Translations under genes and position numbers: made by a program
The notes under the pieces: model-generated
Databases searched by the model: none
What the model saw: only the letters and a program-made list of their open reading frames with translations
Told to the model about the DNA's origin: nothing
In this document: in pieces, positions 977 through 22,713 of the stretch
Numbering within the stretch: position 1 is the first letter of the stretch
How the letters are laid out: each line of letters opens with the position of its first letter
Source: an uncultured Desulfurococcaceae archaeon
Lineage (GTDB): Archaea > Thermoproteota > Thermoprotei_A > Sulfolobales > NBVN01
Direction: 5' to 3'
Length of the DNA: 64,000 nt
Assembly: GCA_964627805.1 (NCBI GenBank)
Contig: CAZVLA010000036.1
Location: 10,422 to 74,421 of the forward strand

Positions 977-2866
977 GTGGGTGATCCTTACTCATGGCTT
1001 GAGGACTTAAGTAGTGAGGAGACCCTTAAGTTCATTGAGGAGCGTAATAGGAGGTTTAGGGAGTTCGTAGATGACTTACCTAGGGAGTTCGTTAGTAGGG
1101 TTAGGAAGTACCTTGGGGTACCTTACGTAAGGAGCTTTAAGTGCTGTGGATGCGGTGTCTACGTAGTTGTTAGGGAGTTGAGTAGGTACGTAGTTAAGTT
1201 GATTCGTTGGGGTGGTGGTGAGGAGAGCATCATATCTAGTGAGAACTTAGGTGAGGAGGTAGTTATTTCTGAGGTTTACCCATCACCTAGTGGTAGTAAG
1301 TTAGGTATCGCATACACCCTCGGAGGTAGTGATGAGGGATTCATTAAGGTAATTGACGTAGGTACTCACGAGGTACTTGATGAGTTACGCGGTACCGTAG
1401 GTAACTTAGTTTGGTGTGGTGAGGATCGCTACTACTACGTAAGGATGTTCAGGAGTGGTAAGTCAGTAGATGGTGTTGAGGCACCTACGGAGCGTGTCTT
1501 CCTTAGGGAGTTAGGTGGTGGTGTTGAGGAGTTAGTGTTTGGTGAGGGATTACCTACTAACTACATGATCTCCCTAGAGGAGTGTAATGACCCGTCGAGG
1601 ATATTCATTACTGTGTGGCGTAGTTGGTGTAGTACCTACGTCTGTGGGGGGTACTTAAGAGACCCTAGTACGTGGTCGGTACTACTTGACGTTGGTGACT
1701 ACTTAATTAAGCCCGTAGGTTACGTAGGTGACGAGGCTTACTTAGTGATTCACGATCGTGGGGGTATGGGTAGGGTAGTTAAGGTAGTCGGTGGTGATGT
1801 TGAGGAGGTCATACCTGAGCAGGAGTACCCACTACGTCAAGCAGTTATTGCTGGGGGTATGGTAGTCACTAACTCCTTAATTAATGCCTCAAGTAGGTTA
1901 AGGATCTTCAGTACTGAGGGCTCATTAATTAAGGAGTTCGTATTTAGTAAGCCGTTAAGTATCGAGTCTATGGAGTCCTTCAAGGATTTAGTCGTACTTA
2001 AGGGGGAGTCATTCAGTAAGCCAGCAAGTCTCTACGTTGTGGACCTGAATGCATTAAGTATTGAGGAGTTCTACGGGTGTGGTGAAGTTACTGAGGTTAG
2101 GGTTAGTGAGGATTGGGTAGTCTCGAGTGTCGGTACTAGAGTTCACGTATTCATTATTGAGGGTGAGGGTAGTGGTAAGGCTGACGTAGCTATTGTTTAC
2201 GGGTACGGAGGCTTCGGAATACCTGTAACGCCCTTCTACTTAGGACCCCTAATACCCTTCATTGAGGACGGGGGTACTTTCGTAGTAGCTAACATACGTG
2301 GTGGGGGTGAGTTTGGTGAGGAGTGGCATAGGTTAGGTATGAGGGAGAGGAAGCAGAATGTCTTTGAGGACTTTAAGGCAGTACTTAAGTACGTTAGGGG
2401 TAAGGGCTTAAGGACGGTTGGGTGGGGGGTTAGTAATGGTGGGTTATTAATAGCTACCGTAATGACTCAATCACCTAACCTCCTGGACACCGCACTTATC
2501 GGGTACCCAGTAATTGATATGCTTAAGTTCCACAAACTCTACATAGGTAAGTTATGGATTAGTGAGTATGGAGACCCGGACAACCCTAGAGATAGGGAGT
2601 ACCTAATTAAGTACTCACCATACCATAACGTACGTGAGGGGGTTAAGTACCCACCAACACTAGTCTACACAGGACTCCACGACGATAGGGTACACCCAGC
2701 ACACGCACTAAAGTTCGTAGCTAAGCTAGAGTCCGTAGGAGCTCCAGCGTACTTAAGAGTAGAGACTAGGAGCGGGCATAGAGGAGCTACACCAGAGACT
2801 AAGGTGAGGGAGTACAGTGACATACTAACATTCACGTACAAAGTACTTAAAATCAAGAACCACTAA
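977..2866 (+). CDS. Prolyl oligopeptidase family (S9) serine peptidase
   Basis: 629 aa. N-terminus GDPYSWLED is typical of prolyl endopeptidases. C-terminal alpha/beta hydrolase has nucleophile elbow GWGVSNGGLL (GxSxGG), acid block HDDRVHP and histidine block SGHRGA. Confidence 0.85.
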   Translation: MGDPYSWLEDLSSEETLKFIEERNRRFREFVDDLPREFVSRVRKYLGVPYVRSFKCCGCGVYVVVRELSRYVVKLIRWGGGEESIISSENLGEEVVISEVYPSPSGSKLGIAYTLGGSDEGFIKVIDVGTHEVLDELRGTVGNLVWCGEDRYYYVRMFRSGKSVDGVEAPTERVFLRELGGGVEELVFGEGLPTNYMISLEECNDPSRIFITVWRSWCSTYVCGGYLRDPSTWSVLLDVGDYLIKPVGYVGDEAYLVIHDRGGMGRVVKVVGGDVEEVIPEQEYPLRQAVIAGGMVVTNSLINASSRLRIFSTEGSLIKEFVFSKPLSIESMESFKDLVVLKGESFSKPASLYVVDLNALSIEEFYGCGEVTEVRVSEDWVVSSVGTRVHVFIIEGEGSGKADVAIVYGYGGFGIPVTPFYLGPLIPFIEDGGTFVVANIRGGGEFGEEWHRLGMRERKQNVFEDFKAVLKYVRGKGLRTVGWGVSNGGLLIATVMTQSPNLLDTALIGYPVIDMLKFHKLYIGKLWISEYGDPDNPRDREYLIKYSPYHNVREGVKYPPTLVYTGLHDDRVHPAHALKFVAKLESVGAPAYLRVETRSGHRGATPETKVREYSDILTFTYKVLKIKNH

Positions 2867-3027
2867 AACACGTAACCACCCCACTGACATCACCTTAATA
2901 TACTGATCATGAGTTAAGATTCAGTTACTAATCCTAATGACTCTCAAGTACTTCATAACTACGCAGTACTTACTAACTCAAGTACTTATACCTCTACCCA
3001 ATAACATTACTTGGCGGTGCTTAGATC

Positions 3028-4152
3028 TTGAAATTCATTGAGGCTGTAGAGATTGAGTGGTTTAGAGGTATTAGGGAGGGGTTGATTGAGGGCTTCAGTG
3101 ACTTCACAGTATTAGTTGGTAGGAATGGTGCGGGTAAGTCAACGGTTCTTGAGGCTCTCTACCTAACCTCAGCATGGCTCAAGGAGACTGACGAGGTACG
3201 TAACACTAGTAAGTACGACTACGTAGTCTACAGACGCGGAGGTAGGGGTAGGTGGAGGAGCGCTAGCTACGCTCTATGGTACTCAATGGATACTAGTAGG
3301 GAGGTTAGGATAGCTATTAAATTTAGGGGTTTATGGAGAGAACTACTTATCTACCACAACACATCACCTCCTACTTGGTTAGTAATGCATGAGTGCATTA
3401 AGCAGAGGATTACGCAGGGATTCGGTCCTGCATACACTCATTACGAGTTACTGGGGTTTCGTGGAGGTACTACGTACCTAGCGAGGAAGGCACTTAAGGG
3501 GGGTGTAGCTACCTTCACTCATGAAGAGGTACTTAAGTACTTCACAGAGTGTTACCCAGTATTTACTGAGGTGCTAAGGAGTACCTTACTCATTGATGAG
3601 GCACTACTCCGCGACTTAGGAGTTGTTGAGAAGTATTCATGGCCTAAGGTCCTTTCTAAGAGGCTTGATAAGGAGGTTGTGAGGGTTATTAAGGAGGAGT
3701 TTGAGGTTGATGCTGAGGGACTTACGTACGCACCCGTAGGTGAGGATACGGTACTCCTCCTTCAGTTAAGTAATACTGCAGTAAGGATTGATGATTTAGG
3801 TGATGGTGCTAGACACGCAGTACTTACGATGCTCCTCCTACTAGCTACTAAGCCTAAGTTAATACTTATTGAGGAGCCCGAGAGTAAGTTACACCCCCGA
3901 GGGATGAGGGTACTTACGGAGGCTATCCTAAAGTACGCTAAGGAGTATGGTGCGCAGGTAGTCGTAAGTACTCATAGTATGGAGTTCATTAAGGTAGGTA
4001 GTGAATTAGCTAAGAGATTAGGTATTGAGATGTCACTAATACACTTAGAGAGGAGTAAGGATGGTGCGTTAATTACGAGGAGACTTAACCAACCCGACCT
4101 TAAGTTACTAACAGACTTAGGTATAGATCCTAGATTCTTAGACATGCTGTGA
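3028..4152 (+). CDS. ABC-type (AAA_15/AAA_21-like) ATPase, OLD/AriA/GajA-like
   Basis: 374 aa, TTG start. Walker A GRNGAGKST (nt 3118-3144), signature-like LGDGARHAV, Walker B/D-loop LILIEEPESKLHP, H-loop VSTHS. Confidence 0.75.
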   Translation: MKFIEAVEIEWFRGIREGLIEGFSDFTVLVGRNGAGKSTVLEALYLTSAWLKETDEVRNTSKYDYVVYRRGGRGRWRSASYALWYSMDTSREVRIAIKFRGLWRELLIYHNTSPPTWLVMHECIKQRITQGFGPAYTHYELLGFRGGTTYLARKALKGGVATFTHEEVLKYFTECYPVFTEVLRSTLLIDEALLRDLGVVEKYSWPKVLSKRLDKEVVRVIKEEFEVDAEGLTYAPVGEDTVLLLQLSNTAVRIDDLGDGARHAVLTMLLLLATKPKLILIEEPESKLHPRGMRVLTEAILKYAKEYGAQVVVSTHSMEFIKVGSELAKRLGIEMSLIHLERSKDGALITRRLNQPDLKLLTDLGIDPRFLDML

Positions 4153-4161
4153 CGGGAGAAG

Positions 4162-4839
4162 GTGGTATTAATGCTAATACAGCTAAAGCCTAGTGAGAGG
4201 AGCTTCGACGTATTCGTACTTAGTGATATCAAGAGTTTTAATGTTTTTATCCTCTGTGAAGGTAGGACTGAAGTAGAGGTTATTAAGTCACTATGTAGTA
4301 GGTTAGGAATAACTAGTGCTAAGTCAGTAGCTATTAGTGATTGTGAGGGTATTGATAGGGTCTATGGCTTAGTACCGTCTATTGCGTTACTATCTAAGTT
4401 ATCTAGGAGGTTGAGGGCACTTGCTGTAGTTACTGATGCTGATGAGTTAAGCTATGAGGGTAGGTTTAGGAGCTTAATTAATAGCTTAAGGTCTAGAGGT
4501 ATTAATGTTGTACTTAGTAATGACTACGTAGTAAGTAGTCAGTTATTTAAGGCCTTAATTAAGGCTAATGATAGGGAGCTCAAGTTTTACGTAGCAGTTA
4601 ACGGCATTAGTGAGTATAAATTCTCTAAACACGTGCTTGAGGACCACGTAATTAAGTTACTCGAGCTTGAAGGTGAAGTTAACGTCTCGGAACTCAGTAA
4701 TGTAAGTAACTCTAAGGAATTCATTAGGGAGCGAAGCATTAACGTCATTAAGGAGGTAGTGGATGCTGAGCCACGCCTCCTTAGGGAGTCCTTCAGTCAC
4801 TTAGTGAAGCTCATGGAGTTAGTACTTAAGGACCCTTAG
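4162..4839 (+). CDS. TOPRIM-like (OLD/DUF4435/DUF4276-type) putative nuclease partner
   Basis: 225 aa; starts 10-19 nt after the ATPase stop (GTG 4162 or ATG 4171). FILCEGRTEVEV gives Glu33 and AVVTDADE gives Asp92-x-Asp94, about 60 residues apart, which is the TOPRIM E...DxD pattern. No other domain recognised. Confidence 0.55.
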   Translation: MVLMLIQLKPSERSFDVFVLSDIKSFNVFILCEGRTEVEVIKSLCSRLGITSAKSVAISDCEGIDRVYGLVPSIALLSKLSRRLRALAVVTDADELSYEGRFRSLINSLRSRGINVVLSNDYVVSSQLFKALIKANDRELKFYVAVNGISEYKFSKHVLEDHVIKLLELEGEVNVSELSNVSNSKEFIRERSINVIKEVVDAEPRLLRESFSHLVKLMELVLKDP

Positions 4840-18670: not shown

Positions 18671-19765
18671 TTAAAACCTAGTTACTTGCTCTAACCCATC
18701 CCTACCTAGGATGAAGGTATCCTCAATCTTAACCTGCCCGAGGCCCTCTATGAGTATTGGTGAGTGTATCATAGCTACTGCCATACCCTCCCTTAACTTA
18801 ATGAATCTATGGCTAGGTACTATAGTAGTTATTGGTGGTTCCTCAACCTGAAGACCTACGCTGTGTAGGTAACCAAGTACCCTATTATCTAGGAACCCGT
18901 ACTTACGGTAGACCTTATCGAGCTCCATCATCACCTCAGAAGGCTTAACACCTGGCTTAGTCAGTTCCTTAGCTACTTCGTAGACCTCCTCAGCACACTT
19001 AAGTGCTTTACGACCTAACTCACTACTACCTACTATGAATGTCCTTGAGATGTTAGCGTAGTAGTTTAGGTAGTCAATACCTAAGACAACCGTAACTGCC
19101 GTGCCCTCACGTACCTTAACACTACTTAATGGCTCAGCATGCACCCTAGGGTGGGGTCCCGCATTAACGTGTACCTTAGGCTCCTCAGAACCTAACTTAA
19201 GTGCTTGGTAGTAGGCTTCAGCAGCTACTTCAGTCTCACTAACTCCTGGCTTAATAGTACTAGCTACTACCTCCATGACCTTAGAAGCTAACTCACCAGC
19301 CCTCCTAATAGCACTTAACTCATACTCATCCTTAACCATCCTCAACTCAGTAACTAACCCGGAAATATCAACGACGTCAACACCGGGGTTCAGCCTCTTA
19401 AACATCTCGTAAAACAGTATGTAGGCATCCCTCTCAATACCGTACTCAAGACCAACAACCCTAAAACCACGCCCCCTAACAGTACTTGATACCTTACCCA
19501 TCAACTCACCACCATCCCTAAAAGTAACGACCTCACCAACCCATAGGTACTCACTAAAACCAACCTCCTCACCCTTAGGAACGAAGAATACGGGATCACC
19601 ATCAGCAGGAACCAACATAGCAGGCCTCAACCACTTAAACCCAACTAAGTAAGTGAACGTAGACTTAACACGAACCATAGCAGCATCAACACCCCTAGAC
19701 CTAAGACCCTCCTGAAAAGCCCTCAACCTCCTACGAAGAACCTCAACCGGGAACCTACGAACCAC
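18671..19765 (-). CDS. M24 family Xaa-Pro peptidase
   Basis: 364 aa. Creatinase-like N-domain plus pita-bread C-domain with HSVGLQVEEPP and EDTFIL metal-ligand blocks. Confidence 0.85.
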   Translation of the reverse strand: MVRRFPVEVLRRRLRAFQEGLRSRGVDAAMVRVKSTFTYLVGFKWLRPAMLVPADGDPVFFVPKGEEVGFSEYLWVGEVVTFRDGGELMGKVSSTVRGRGFRVVGLEYGIERDAYILFYEMFKRLNPGVDVVDISGLVTELRMVKDEYELSAIRRAGELASKVMEVVASTIKPGVSETEVAAEAYYQALKLGSEEPKVHVNAGPHPRVHAEPLSSVKVREGTAVTVVLGIDYLNYYANISRTFIVGSSELGRKALKCAEEVYEVAKELTKPGVKPSEVMMELDKVYRKYGFLDNRVLGYLHSVGLQVEEPPITTIVPSHRFIKLREGMAVAMIHSPILIEGLGQVKIEDTFILGRDGLEQVTRF

Positions 19766-19926
19766 ACTACCACCTACACATCAAGAACCAAGCAGGAAGG
19801 AATATATTAGACATTACGTAAGACCACAACACACTTAAACTTAACAACCCAACATATTAACCCACTACGTTAATGAGTTACTCAGTAAGACCTATCACGG
19901 TATAGTACGTAATTAGTACTTGGTGG

Positions 19927-20400
19927 TTGGTATTAGTCGAGACTATTAATTATAGGAAGTTAAGGCTTCACCTAGATGTACTTCATAACATCGTGAAGCA
20001 CAAGTACTTAAGTAGCTCAATGCTTGAAGTAGTACGTTACTGGTATGAATCACGTGGAGATATTGAGGATACTGAAGTCCTAGCATTAGTAGCTGCACTC
20101 TATGATTTCCAGATGAGGGTAGTTACTATTAAGAATAACTTCATGACTATACTGAAGTACTTAGACTCTAAAGGACTTAGGTTCATTGACTTATCTAATG
20201 AGGAGGTGGCTAGGGAGGTATTTAAGTTAGTTAAGGACAGAAGTAAGTTCTTCCACAGATTTGACCCAGTCATGAGAGTACTGCCCATACTCACGAAGTC
20301 AGTAGCTAATGCGGGGCTAAGGGAGGTAGCTAGGAGGTACTCATGGGATATTGAATTGCTTACTAGGAAGCTATTGGAGCGTGTGGGTCTCAGTACTTAA
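19927..20400 (+). CDS. N-terminal part of a DUF2400-type (HhH-GPD-like) protein, split or frameshifted
   Basis: 157-aa ORF ending in frame 1. Carries DTEVLALVAALYDF and FFHRFDP blocks that I recall from the N-half of DUF2400 proteins. The continuation lies in frame +1 (open from 20330). Confidence 0.5.
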   Translation: MVLVETINYRKLRLHLDVLHNIVKHKYLSSSMLEVVRYWYESRGDIEDTEVLALVAALYDFQMRVVTIKNNFMTILKYLDSKGLRFIDLSNEEVAREVFKLVKDRSKFFHRFDPVMRVLPILTKSVANAGLREVARRYSWDIELLTRKLLERVGLST

Positions 20401-21325
20401 TAACTTAGGTATTAAGCGTAGGTACTCATTAATTCAGTTCCTTAAAGGTATTAAATGCTCATGTAGGGAGGACCTACTAAGTAATGTTAAGTGCATACTA
20501 CCACTACCTAATCATTCAGTAACCTATAAGAGAGTGAATCTATTCCTTAGGTGGTTAGTTAGGGATGAGTACCCTGACTTAGGCTTATGGGGCTTCATAA
20601 GTAAGAGTAAGTTGATTATCCCATTAGATACGGGAATACTGAGAGTTGTTGGTAGGATGTTGGGTAGGGGTGAGTTAAGGAGGGGTAGGGAGTCACTTAA
20701 TGTAGTTATGAGGTTCTTAAGGTCAGTAAATCCTGAAGATCCCGTTAAGTATGACTTCATACTTTCTAGACCATCAATACTGGGTTGGTGTAAGGCTAGT
20801 ATTGAGGAATCGAATTGTGATATATGCTACTTAAGGAATCTATGCTTAACTGGTAGGTCGTGGAGGTATAGGGAACCTAGGAAAGTTAGTGAGTCTAGGG
20901 AGCACCTAACGGTTAAGGAGGTAATGCTTAGGATCATGATGAGGTTATTCAAGAAGCATAAATGCTGGACTGAGAAAGTAATTAATCATCACTTAAGACC
21001 CGATGTTTACTGTGAGAATTCAGATGTAGTGGTTGGTGAGGCTAAGGTTGTTAAGGGTAGGATACCTAATAGGTTATCTGATGTAGAAGGTCCTCAGCAA
21101 GTCATTAGGTACTTCAATACACTCGTTAATGAGCAAGGAGCTAATGTTAGGGCGGTAGTTCTTGCTTACTACTATAAGGGTAGGAAGTTACCTGAGGTTA
21201 TTCTTGAAGCTATTAAGGAGAACATAGAGTACGCTAAGTTAAGTGTGATGAAGGGTAGGGACGTTAAGGTAATCCTAATACATGTAGGTGAGGAGGGTAG
21301 GGTAGTTAGTGTTATGGGTATTTAG
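20351..21325 (+). CDS. DUF2400-type C-terminal part with 4-Cys Fe-S loop, fused to a RecB/Cas4-like PD-(D/E)xK nuclease
   Basis: KRVNLFLRWLVRDEYPDLGLW, IIPLDTG and DPVKYDF blocks. Cys-x8-Cys-x2-Cys-x5-Cys at nt 20789-20845. Then RPDVY (Asp at 21002-21004), GEAK (21038-21046) and QVIRY (21097-21111), i.e. D...ExK...QxxxY. Confidence 0.6.
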   Translation: MNCLLGSYWSVWVSVLNNLGIKRRYSLIQFLKGIKCSCREDLLSNVKCILPLPNHSVTYKRVNLFLRWLVRDEYPDLGLWGFISKSKLIIPLDTGILRVVGRMLGRGELRRGRESLNVVMRFLRSVNPEDPVKYDFILSRPSILGWCKASIEESNCDICYLRNLCLTGRSWRYREPRKVSESREHLTVKEVMLRIMMRLFKKHKCWTEKVINHHLRPDVYCENSDVVVGEAKVVKGRIPNRLSDVEGPQQVIRYFNTLVNEQGANVRAVVLAYYYKGRKLPEVILEAIKENIEYAKLSVMKGRDVKVILIHVGEEGRVVSVMGI

Positions 21326-21327
21326 GA

Positions 21328-22713
21328 TTAACTAATTACCTTCACTAACGGTTCTGGTGTTGTGTATGGTCTTATCCTTATGGTGTCTACTACGTATGGG
21401 TACCCACCGAATACGTATACTCTAGTGAATGTTGTGTATGTAGTGTCTACGGTCCTTACCTCAGCTACTTTAGTTCCGTTACTTAGGTAGACCTCAGCTA
21501 TTAGGGTTCCGTTACTTAACCTTATGAATCTGTCGAAGTACCATATACCCTGCCCTAGACCAGGTACTGAGTCTATTGAGGCTATTATGGTTCCGTAGGA
21601 GTTCGTCCTCTTATCTATGAATACGTAGGGACCTACACCACCTAGTGTTGCTGATGGTATTGCGTAGACACCAACACCTATTCCGTAACCATTCATTGAG
21701 TCATCAACAACCCCTACCCTATCCCACCAGCATGGTGTCTTACTTAACCTCATTACCCAAGCCTCTAGAGCGAATGAACCCGTAAGTACCTTACCTAACT
21801 CCCTATAGCCTCCGTTAGGGTCGCAGTACACGTCCTTCTCTAGGCTGTAGGTACCGTCGTGACTTAATGAGTTGATTCTGTAGACGATACCTAATGACCA
21901 ATTAACCCACTCAAACCTACCCTCGAAACTATCGAAGAATATGAATGTCCTGTATGGATTCATGTAGCTACCGTACGGGTTCCTACCTAAGGTTCTTGAG
22001 TACCCGTAGAACATGTATATAGTTACGTTTGAGTTAGCTGGTATGTAGGGGACCTTAACCCATATAGTACCTACTCTAGACCCGTAGTCGAACCTCTCAA
22101 TCCAGAAGTAGAGTGGGTTACCTCTTGAGTCAGCGAAGAATATGTCTGAACCATTAGGTAGTACGTACCCCCACCCACTCCATGAGGGTGTTAAGGTTAC
22201 GTTAACTACGTAATTACGTAGTGACTCACCACTACGTTCAGTAATCACTACCTTAGACCACTTCATAACCATCAATGTAGGTAAGTCAGCTAACCTCAAA
22301 CCAGTAACTACTGAGGACTCAACACCCCTACCACATACCTTAATGGAGAATACCTCATAATCACTTAAGTTAGTAGGTACCGCTATCAAAGCCTCCGAAT
22401 CAGCCCTCACTACGTAAGGACCTATACCCACCTTAACTACTGAACCACCAGTACTAATGAGTGCCTCATCAATAACCGCAGGTACTGAACCTACGTTCCT
22501 AACCCTAAGCACCAGTAACTTAAGTACGGGGTCACCCCTATACACGTCCTCAATAACTACTACGTTCTTAAGTACCGCCTCCTCACCCTTAATAATACCT
22601 GAGTAATTCACCGTAACGACTAGGATAACTAATGAAGTAGCTACCACGACCGCCAGTAAAGTAGCTACTGCTACGTAACTACTCACACCACGCATTACGT
22701 ACTCCCGCATCAC
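21328..22713 (-). CDS. DUF2341 + ConA/LamG-like domain protein with type IV pilin-like (class III) signal peptide
   Basis: N-terminus MRG-VSSYVAVATLLAVVVATSLVILV fits the archaeal prepilin pattern. SDIFFADSRGNPLYFWIERFDYGSRVGTIWVKVPYIPANSNVTIYMFYGY matches the DUF2341 core as I recall it. Confidence 0.75.
   Translation of the reverse strand: MMREYVMRGVSSYVAVATLLAVVVATSLVILVVTVNYSGIIKGEEAVLKNVVVIEDVYRGDPVLKLLVLRVRNVGSVPAVIDEALISTGGSVVKVGIGPYVVRADSEALIAVPTNLSDYEVFSIKVCGRGVESSVVTGLRLADLPTLMVMKWSKVVITERSGESLRNYVVNVTLTPSWSGWGYVLPNGSDIFFADSRGNPLYFWIERFDYGSRVGTIWVKVPYIPANSNVTIYMFYGYSRTLGRNPYGSYMNPYRTFIFFDSFEGRFEWVNWSLGIVYRINSLSHDGTYSLEKDVYCDPNGGYRELGKVLTGSFALEAWVMRLSKTPCWWDRVGVVDDSMNGYGIGVGVYAIPSATLGGVGPYVFIDKRTNSYGTIIASIDSVPGLGQGIWYFDRFIRLSNGTLIAEVYLSNGTKVAEVRTVDTTYTTFTRVYVFGGYPYVVDTIRIRPYTTPEPLVKVIS

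Follow-up and report, generated by a model that had tools for sequence, protein, structure and literature searches.

A rare archaeal fusion of a DUF2400 domain and a NucS-like nuclease, frameshifted in an uncultured Desulfurococcaceae archaeon

The DNA analyzed here, a 64,000-nt stretch from an uncultured Desulfurococcaceae archaeon (contig CAZVLA010000036.1, hereafter the window), contains a gene of a rare archaeal family in which a DUF2400 domain is followed by a NucS-like PD-(D/E)xK nuclease domain. The DUF2400 domain is a remote branch of the iron-sulfur (Fe-S) HhH-GPD superfamily and has the two-lobed helical fold of its glycosylases. That the locus encodes a two-domain DNA enzyme for lesion-directed, repair-type incision is, in our judgment, an evenly balanced proposition. 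Repair and restriction are not separable with the present data, and we lean only slightly toward repair. The copy in the window carries a frameshift, which is most likely a real and recent inactivating mutation; a recent pseudogene is the most probable reading of this copy, and a split gene the most favorable one. No published description of a DUF2400-NucS-like fusion was found in the literature searched.

A preliminary description of the window, made from the letters alone, had presented the open reading frame (ORF) at 20351-21325 on the + strand as a complete protein. This ORF (TTG start, 324 aa) does exist in the window, but it represents only the 3' two-thirds of a gene that spans 19927-21325 and comprises ~466 codons once the frameshift is bridged. 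The gene is split into a 157-aa ORF (19927..20400, +), which encodes the N-terminal half of the DUF2400 domain, and the 324-aa ORF, and the two lie in different frames. In a collection of 5.8 billion proteins the closest relatives were single intact ORFs of 409-488 aa, with the exception of P0001 (314 aa), which has the same sequence as the window gene. The fusion of a glycosylase-like module with a nuclease, as initially proposed, is present in intact homologues. Compared with the intact homologue P0002, the upstream ORF was 69% identical to the N-terminus and the downstream ORF was 72% identical, and a tblastn search of the window with P0002 covered 20020-20394 and 20378-21322 in two frames. 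The Pfam model DUF2400 (PF09674, gathering threshold 25 bits) matched the ORF at 20351-21322 alone with an E-value of 7e-24 (85.5 bits), over positions 122-222 of the 225 in the profile only (ORF residues 41-141). As the match begins at position 122, about the first half of the domain is absent from the 324-aa ORF. When the two ORFs were joined, the resulting 466-aa protein matched positions 11-222 of 225 (E 4.8e-27, 95.9 bits), and from this nearly end-to-end match it follows that the true gene is 19927-21325. Both matches uphold the DUF2400-type core of the preliminary description. Codons 1-10 of the 324-aa ORF (20351-20380) are an out-of-frame overlap that lies outside the protein family. 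In other assemblies, the upstream half is annotated as a separate 157-aa gene.

The frameshift was located by codon comparison at ~20380/20381. The window reads 'AAG CTA TTG GAG C GTG TGG GTC TCA' where P0002 has 'AAA GTA TTA ACG GCT ATA TGG ACT TCG', which amounts to a 2-nt deficit, with a single C in place of the full codon GCT. The identical split was found in other assemblies of the same strain. Over the 2604 nt compared, the Logan contig L088 (run SRR8542060) showed one single-nucleotide polymorphism at 19855, no gap and the same frameshift; a JGI contig of 5609 nt carries the same split, and so does an NCBI contig of 125,787 nt, on which both halves are called as separate genes. An exact-pattern search of metagenome contigs for an intact allele, allowing 0-4 nt at the frameshift site, gave no match. 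No slippery sequence was found at the site ('TTG GAG C GTG TGG'), neither a slippery heptamer nor a stop-codon context, and the break corresponds to a position within a helix, residues 112-130, of the AlphaFold model of P0002. The window gene was read as inactivated. Programmed frameshifting was rejected as unsupported for want of a slippery site. Apart from the frameshift neither half shows decay, with 157 and 324 codons and no further stops. These codons, still open in a gene with a guanine-cytosine (GC) content of ~41%, would be in keeping with a frameshift that does not inactivate the gene, whether as an assembly error shared between data sets, by ribosomal bypass through a programmed shift or as a functional enzyme split into two chains. 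The overlap of the ORFs by 50 nt, as in coupled genes, and the available restart codons GTG (20381) and TTG (20351), which are used by gene callers, would also fit. We nevertheless regard this explanation as quite improbable, as the same sequence recurs in the Logan re-assembly and in the JGI and NCBI contigs (these may have raw data or types of error in common), every other full-length relative is encoded by one ORF, and a predicted helix is an unlikely natural split point. The GC content of 20000-21500 is 0.40-0.41, against 0.43-0.48 in the flanks, a difference that is too small to serve as an argument for foreign origin.

The DUF2400 domain of the joined protein comprises ~285 aa and carries the motifs HRF, KRxNLFLRW, PDLGLW, Pro-Leu-Asp (PLD) and DPVKYDF, signatures of the family that recur in almost all of 64 members compared. 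The NCBIfam model TIGR02757, a hypothetical equivalog with a cut-off of 139.2 bits, gave 82 bits for the repaired window protein, 93.2 for P0002, 88.3 for P0007 and 82 for P0010, and 220.8 for the bacterial protein P0015. By sequence, the archaeal fusions are classified as a divergent subfamily of DUF2400/TIGR02757. When a profile of 64 family members was searched against the sequences in the PDB, ten matches were obtained and all were endonuclease III (EndoIII); the best was 1orn, the EndoIII of G. stearothermophilus, with an E-value of 0.023. In this alignment 'iPLDTH' was placed on the catalytic 'iaVDTH' of EndoIII and the Cys loop on the EndoIII cluster loop. An hhalign comparison of the family profile with E. 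coli Nth, whose sequence is identical to that of PDB 2abk, yielded an E-value of 3.4e-4 with a probability of only 38%, and aligned D205 of P0002, the Asp of the PLD motif, to D138 of Nth and the four Cys to C187/C194/C197/C203. Residues 1-288 of P0002 were also modelled separately by AlphaFold (mean predicted local distance difference test score, pLDDT, 93.8). The top 21 Foldseek matches of this model in the PDB were all EndoIII, MutY, MUTYH, NTHL1 or AGOG, i.e., Fe-S enzymes of the HhH-GPD superfamily, with probabilities up to 0.97, template modeling (TM) scores of 0.44-0.53 and E-values of only 0.2-2. The full-length P0002 model returned nuclease-domain matches only, and the EndoIII likeness was seen with the N-terminal domain modelled on its own. 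A bacterial DUF2400 member gave a weak match to the model of the EndoIII-type glycosylase DR2438, and Pfam EndIII_4Fe-2S matched one homologue only, with an E-value of 2. In the HhH-GPD/EndoIII superfamily the catalytic Asp stands ~20 residues beyond the HhH motif; here the distance from the basic helix to the PLD Asp is 33 residues instead of 18. The distant HhH-GPD kinship previously suggested for this locus is borne out, and the Cys cluster is a putative counterpart of the EndoIII/MutY loop.

Within the family the core of the domain is strongly conserved. The residues R81, K172, R173, R179, W180, R183, D188, G190, W192 and D205 and the DPVKYDF motif (P0002 numbering) are kept in 59-63 of 64 family sequences, which span many phyla, include stand-alone bacterial members and have an overall identity of ~25%. 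The Arg of HRF is invariant among the 64, and the PLD aspartate is present in 59 of 63. The four-Cys loop was found in ~41-44 of the 64 sampled sequences (about two thirds), in all nine full-length archaeal fusions aligned and in 22 of 23 fusion-family sequences, the exception being a truncated fragment. Because this core is nearly invariant across the 64 sequences, a conserved chemistry or substrate is favored over a fast-evolving sensor.

The C-terminal ~145 aa are a PD-(D/E)xK nuclease domain with the motif order E...D...ExK...QxxxY. The last 145 residues of the window protein had no match in Pfam, NCBIfam or PADLOC and could be assigned by profile and fold comparisons only. A profile of nine homologous C-terminal regions was searched against the PDB, and the only significant sequence match was NucS of Pyrococcus abyssi (2vld, E 3.1e-4). 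In this alignment RPD (through its Asp), GE(A/V)K (Glu and Lys) and QxxRY (Gln and Tyr) fell on the motifs of the NucS catalytic domain. The full-length AlphaFold model of P0002 (pLDDT 91.2; predicted TM score, pTM, 0.87) showed an alpha-beta-beta-beta-alpha-beta core in the C-terminal domain (H298-314, E319-322, E334-337, E341-349, H362-376, E381-391; H, helix, E, strand), with the D and ExK motifs on the expected strands (2 and 3) of the PD-(D/E)xK core. The pTM of 0.87 suggests that the two domains of the fusion pack against each other in a defined way in the model. SfsA was the best Foldseek match of the nuclease domain (E 2.5e-3, probability 1.0); EndoMS, NucS, CdiA-CT, XisH and BstEII were matched as well, and the probabilities ranged over 0.94-1.0. 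Across 27 relatives, conservation in the nuclease domain is highest at the columns of D, E, Q and Y.

The PD-(D/E)xK assignment of the preliminary description was confirmed by the NucS match, the model topology and the Foldseek search, but its proposed RecB/Cas4 kinship was not, as the domain is closest to NucS/EndoMS and SfsA. No RecB, AddB or Cas4 structure was found in the top 50 Foldseek matches of the nuclease domain. The QxxxY motif, which had been taken as a mark of RecB/Cas4 nucleases, is also common to NucS, with which it aligns. Matches to Cas4 were below threshold and seen in some relatives only, with none for the window (Pfam Cas_Cas4, E 0.004-0.06; PADLOC Cas4, E 0.008 in one homologue); no other PADLOC model was matched. 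NucS_C (PF01939) did not match the window protein and gave 18.7-20.2 bits for relatives, below the cut-off of 24. The sub-threshold Cas4 matches and the presence of QxxxY are what speaks for taking the preliminary description literally, as an intact 324-aa protein with a DUF2400-type module and a RecB/Cas4-family nuclease. Such a protein is highly improbable, since the 324-aa ORF lacks the first ~120 DUF2400 profile positions, which are found in the upstream ORF, since NucS is the sole significant sequence match and NucS, EndoMS and SfsA lead the fold matches, and since the nuclease domain has two Cys only and no Cas4-type four-Cys cluster.

The features of the locus are listed in Table 1. All of the motifs named in the preliminary description (KRVNLFLRWLVRDEYPDLGLW, IIPLDTG, DPVKYDF, RPDVY, GEAK, QVIRY and the Cys cluster, the latter at exactly 20789-20845) were found at their positions, and with a DUF2400 E-value of 7e-24 chance does not account for them.

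Table 1. Coordinates of the fusion gene, its domains and motifs, and the neighboring genes in the window.
Feature	Position	Strand	Basis or detail
Whole gene, DUF2400/EndoIII-like Fe-S domain followed by NucS-like PD-(D/E)xK nuclease	19927..21325	+	Alignment with intact homologues P0002-P0011
Upstream ORF, N-terminal ~151 DUF2400 residues including the invariant HRF, then 6 out-of-frame residues and stop	19927..20400	+	
Frameshift site 'GAG C GTG'	20378..20383	+	Codon comparison with P0002; identical in L088
C-terminal half of DUF2400 domain	20381..20788	+	Pfam
Motif KRVNLFLRWLVRDEYPDLGLW	20528-20590	+	
Basic helix KRVNLFLRW	20528-20554	+	
IIPLDTG	20615-20635	+	Putative catalytic Asp codon 20627-20629
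DPVKYDF	20738-20758	+	
Cys-x8-Cys-x2-Cys-x5-Cys, predicted [4Fe-4S] loop	20789..20845	+	
NucS-like PD-(D/E)xK domain, ~145 aa	20888..21325	+	
Glu codon of WTEK	20972-20974	+	
RPDVY	20996-21010	+	Asp codon 21002-21004
GEAK	21035-21046	+	Glu codon 21038-21040, Lys codon 21044-21046
QVIRY	21098-21112	+	Gln codon 21098-21100, Tyr codon 21110-21112
M24 peptidase, divergently transcribed neighbor	18671-19765		
DUF2341 protein, convergent neighbor, 461 aa	21328-22713	-	DUF2341 E 5e-19

The distribution of the fusion was examined with a profile of the nuclease domain, which returned 29 clusters at E <= 1e-3 among 1.84 billion representative proteins. In most of these the domain forms the C-terminal part of a DUF2400 protein, or the cluster consists of fragments of such fusions, and a few are small stand-alone nucleases. 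In a search of one genome per species (185,579 species) a fusion-type protein was encoded at three of the best 80 loci, one of the three copies being frameshifted, and a clade-specific scan of JGI metagenomes gave three fusion loci. The DUF2400 family as such occurs in many phyla and is common, the initial search having given 573 clusters at E <= 1e-3. Named sources of the fusion are few and belong mostly to the Thermoproteota, namely Thermoprotei metagenome-assembled genomes and Thermofilum sp. Viral contigs contained six DUF2400-only relatives and no fusion, so that a viral origin of the fusion is not supported.

The fusions fall into three clades. Clade A, which includes the window gene, has PLD... 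in the DUF2400 domain and RPD...GE(A/V)K in the nuclease. In clade B (P0006-8, P0148, P0154, P0158, P0159, P0161) the former reads PLG.E, with Gly in place of the Asp and a Glu at the second position after it, and the nuclease carries RPD...E.K. Clade C (P0010, P0011, P0163, P0165) keeps the Asp in SLD.G, and its nuclease has S.D...VEVE, in which the Lys of ExK is replaced by Glu; the same Lys to Glu substitution is present in the nuclease motif of BamHI. Judging from the alignments, every clade retains a carboxylate near the putative glycosylase position together with the acidic nuclease triad. The loss of the canonical Asp in clade B is not in itself a sign of inactivity, since an Asp-less HhH-GPD glycosylase of the crenarchaeal genus Saccharolobus is active via another Glu (PMC11754123).

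Closely similar fusions were also observed in bins labelled Nitrososphaeria (L001:5101-6417), Omnitrophota, a bacterial phylum (L002:3239-4276), and Aenigmatarchaeota (L003:164-943). Their similarity across bin labels points to mis-binning or recent horizontal transfer. The locus in the Omnitrophota bin (~6x coverage) is a second broken copy, closely related to the gene of L001/L003 (L002:3239-4757). Its ORF stops at '...AIDHD*' and the nuclease part (LRPDILCYNK...EIKL...QQLKTY) runs on in another frame; this frameshift could be an error of low-coverage assembly.

The gene neighborhoods of the fusion were variable. In the window, the stop of the DUF2341 gene lies 3 nt from the end of the fusion gene, and its product has an N-terminal hydrophobic segment. 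Farther out, the upstream side has the phosphate-uptake genes PstS and PHO4, while genes for an ArsR-like regulator and an ABC transporter are located downstream. Genes for pstS and PHO4, in a rearranged order, are likewise found in the vicinity of the 72%-identical orthologue, which constitutes partial synteny. Over ~15 fusion loci no recurrent neighbor gene was found. Across ~12 loci the surroundings were mostly housekeeping or mixed, and the fusion gene was in most cases on its own; the upstream genes at L098, L102 and L103 are mutually unrelated. At L098:5069-8239, and also in L099, the fusion gene follows a gene for a 635-aa Schlafen-group-3-like helicase (PF09848) on the same strand, at a distance of 25 nt. 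In L098 a family-4-type uracil-DNA glycosylase and a PIN/ribbon-helix-helix pair are encoded a few kb upstream, and the Schlafen-like helicase is confined to this one lineage. At L001 an HsdM-like N6-adenine methyltransferase gene (2725-4281, -) is located two genes upstream of the fusion. The fusion appears to be a self-contained single-polypeptide system. No Rfam family reached the gathering score over the 64-kb window, which contains no tRNA, rRNA or other known RNA.

Stand-alone bacterial DUF2400 loci (L004-L080; e.g., L034:6001-11500, L038, L031, L052, L065) have recurring neighbors. At 18 loci the DUF2400 gene is followed on the same strand by a gene for an unannotated protein of ~574 aa, and nearby genes encode an Rrf2 regulator (19 loci), a cupin (13), Hcp/prismane (12), an HD protein (9) and a peroxiredoxin (8). 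This Rrf2/Hcp/peroxiredoxin context, seen in Planctomycetota, Coatesbacteria and Elusimicrobiota, has the look of a gene cluster for nitrosative or oxidative stress. The ~574-aa protein was considered as a counterpart of the nuclease domain and discarded, as it is unlike that domain and has no Pfam match and no similar PDB sequence.

As a working model, the DUF2400 domain would bind duplex DNA via its Fe-S loop and its basic helix (KRxNLFLRWxVR). The target, a base that is damaged or non-canonical, might then be flipped into a pocket lined by the family-invariant residues of HRF, PDLGLW and DPVKYDF and would probably be excised by the DUF2400 domain, in which the PLD Asp aligns with EndoIII Asp138. 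The NucS-type domain would hydrolyze the backbone beside the recognized base or the resulting abasic site. With recognition and incision combined in one polypeptide, the protein could be an endonuclease of thermophilic archaea resembling those of 'alternative excision repair'. The slight lean toward repair is based on the DUF2400 core, which is almost invariant between bacteria and archaea; the partial synteny, the absence of consistent defense genes and the stress genes around bacterial DUF2400 likewise favor a repair role.

Several observations weigh against this proposal. Pfam HhH-GPD (PF00730) matched no member even at E-values up to 10, and the EndoIII similarity is weak by E-value (0.023 for sequence, 0.2-2 for Foldseek, and an hhalign probability of 38%). 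The literature searched contained one passing mention of DUF2400/TIGR02757, no functional characterization of the family and no biochemistry of any DUF2400 protein. The distribution of the fusion is patchy and very rare, with two of ~15 loci frameshifted (the window and L002), and such patchiness and broken copies would be expected of accessory or defense genes rather than of core repair genes. Some fusion loci have genes for PIN toxin-antitoxin pairs, for an HsdM-like methyltransferase or for a Schlafen-like helicase in their vicinity. Finally, as far as analogy goes, the only characterized protein with such an architecture is a restriction enzyme.

The restriction enzymes in question are the END nucleases (PMC12191111, bioRxiv 2025). 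Each of them links a sensor, an inactivated EndoIII/Ogg domain, with a module of PLD, McrB-like or NucS-like PD-DExK type. They perform modification-dependent restriction and act on phages with hypermodified DNA, and END-Mag, with a NucS-like PD-DExK nuclease, restricts phages with modified guanine (PMC12191111). With this precedent it is possible, though somewhat unlikely in our view, that the fusion is a Type IV modification-dependent restriction enzyme of the END kind, whose DUF2400 domain mainly senses non-canonical, hypermodified bases in the DNA of invading viruses or plasmids and whose NucS-like domain cuts that DNA. The frameshift would then reflect the usual rapid loss of defense genes. 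The rarity and patchiness described above (29 clusters in 1.84 billion proteins, three of the best 80 genome loci), the variable neighborhoods, the two frameshifted copies, the occurrence of near-identical proteins under three different phylum labels, the absence of the canonical Asp in clade B and the HsdM-like gene, PIN pairs and Schlafen-like helicase, each in the vicinity of the fusion at single loci, would all be in line with such a role. However, the sensor does not look inactivated in the clade of the window, which keeps the Asp aligned with D138 together with the invariant Lys-Arg and the predicted Fe-S loop, and the near-invariance of the core from bacteria to archaea is unlike restriction specificity domains, which usually vary. 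In addition, the window ORF had no PADLOC match and lies in no consistent defense-island context, the partial synteny between related species suggests vertical descent, viral contigs held no copy of the fusion, and the likeness to END-Mag is one of architecture.

A more far-reaching possibility, which we put forward tentatively, is that a catalytically live Fe-S EndoIII-like glycosylase has been hard-wired to a NucS-type cutter, as a new class of thermophile enzyme. The recognition or excision of one particular base would lead directly to cleavage of one or both strands, and this base could be a common lesion caused by heat, nitric oxide or oxidation, or else a hypermodified base of viral DNA. 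If this were true, the fusion could serve as a 'Rosetta stone' that identifies bacterial DUF2400/TIGR02757 as a DNA base-excision or base-sensing family. The fusion, the EndoIII-like fold and the aligned Asp and Fe-S ligands together provide a first testable lead that DUF2400 may act on DNA bases. The design of a glycosylase-fold domain combined with a nuclease would also reach into the archaea, and into another branch of the EndoIII superfamily, the second with this design and one that appears to have kept its catalytic function. For the genome studied here the significance is modest, as its copy is broken.

Compared with known systems, typical DUF2400/TIGR02757 members are stand-alone proteins of ~250-290 aa, mostly bacterial, to which the fusion clade adds a ~145-aa nuclease. 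With EndoIII and MutY (2abk, 1orn and the D. radiodurans EndoIII-3, 4uob) the fusion shares the two-lobed all-helical fold, and alignment places the Asp of its (I/V)(P/A)(L/V)DTH-type motif on Asp138 and its C-terminal four-Cys loop on the [4Fe-4S] ligands. It differs in the Cys spacing, x8-x2-x5 against x6-x2-x5 in EndoIII, in an insertion of ~15 residues (the PDLGLW region) between the basic helix and the Asp, and in its own DPVKYDF signature. The similarity is remote (E 0.02-2, TM ~0.5) and the glycosylase role of the fusion is a predicted one. The resemblance to SfsA (4dap, 4dav), with an identity of 13-18%, does not extend beyond the PD-(D/E)xK core, and SfsA has an N-terminal oligonucleotide/oligosaccharide-binding fold and no glycosylase-like domain, unlike the fusion. 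With NucS/EndoMS (2vld, 5gke), the mismatch endonuclease of archaea and actinobacteria, the fusion shares the same catalytic fold, with D160, E174, K176 and Q..Y aligned, and the joining of a base-flipping recognition domain to a PD-(D/E)xK cutter. The N-terminal mismatch-binding and dimerization domain of NucS is replaced by DUF2400, no PCNA-binding tail is evident, and with NucS_C below threshold and no NucS_N the fusion does not qualify as a NucS orthologue, although the match to 2vld supports homology between the catalytic domains. END-Mag (MDV2503288), compared by description only, likewise combines an EndoIII/Ogg-superfamily domain and a NucS-like nuclease in one polypeptide. The END sensor is an inactivated Ogg/AGOG-like domain that has no catalytic residues, whereas the fusion carries a DUF2400 domain with the Asp (in clade B a nearby Glu), the invariant Lys-Arg and a predicted Fe-S loop. 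The earlier statement that no characterized example of such a fusion was known therefore holds for DUF2400, but not for the architecture in general: by analogy, the END nucleases are the only characterized proteins in which a sensor with a glycosylase fold is joined to a nuclease, and they may be regarded as the nearest precedent.

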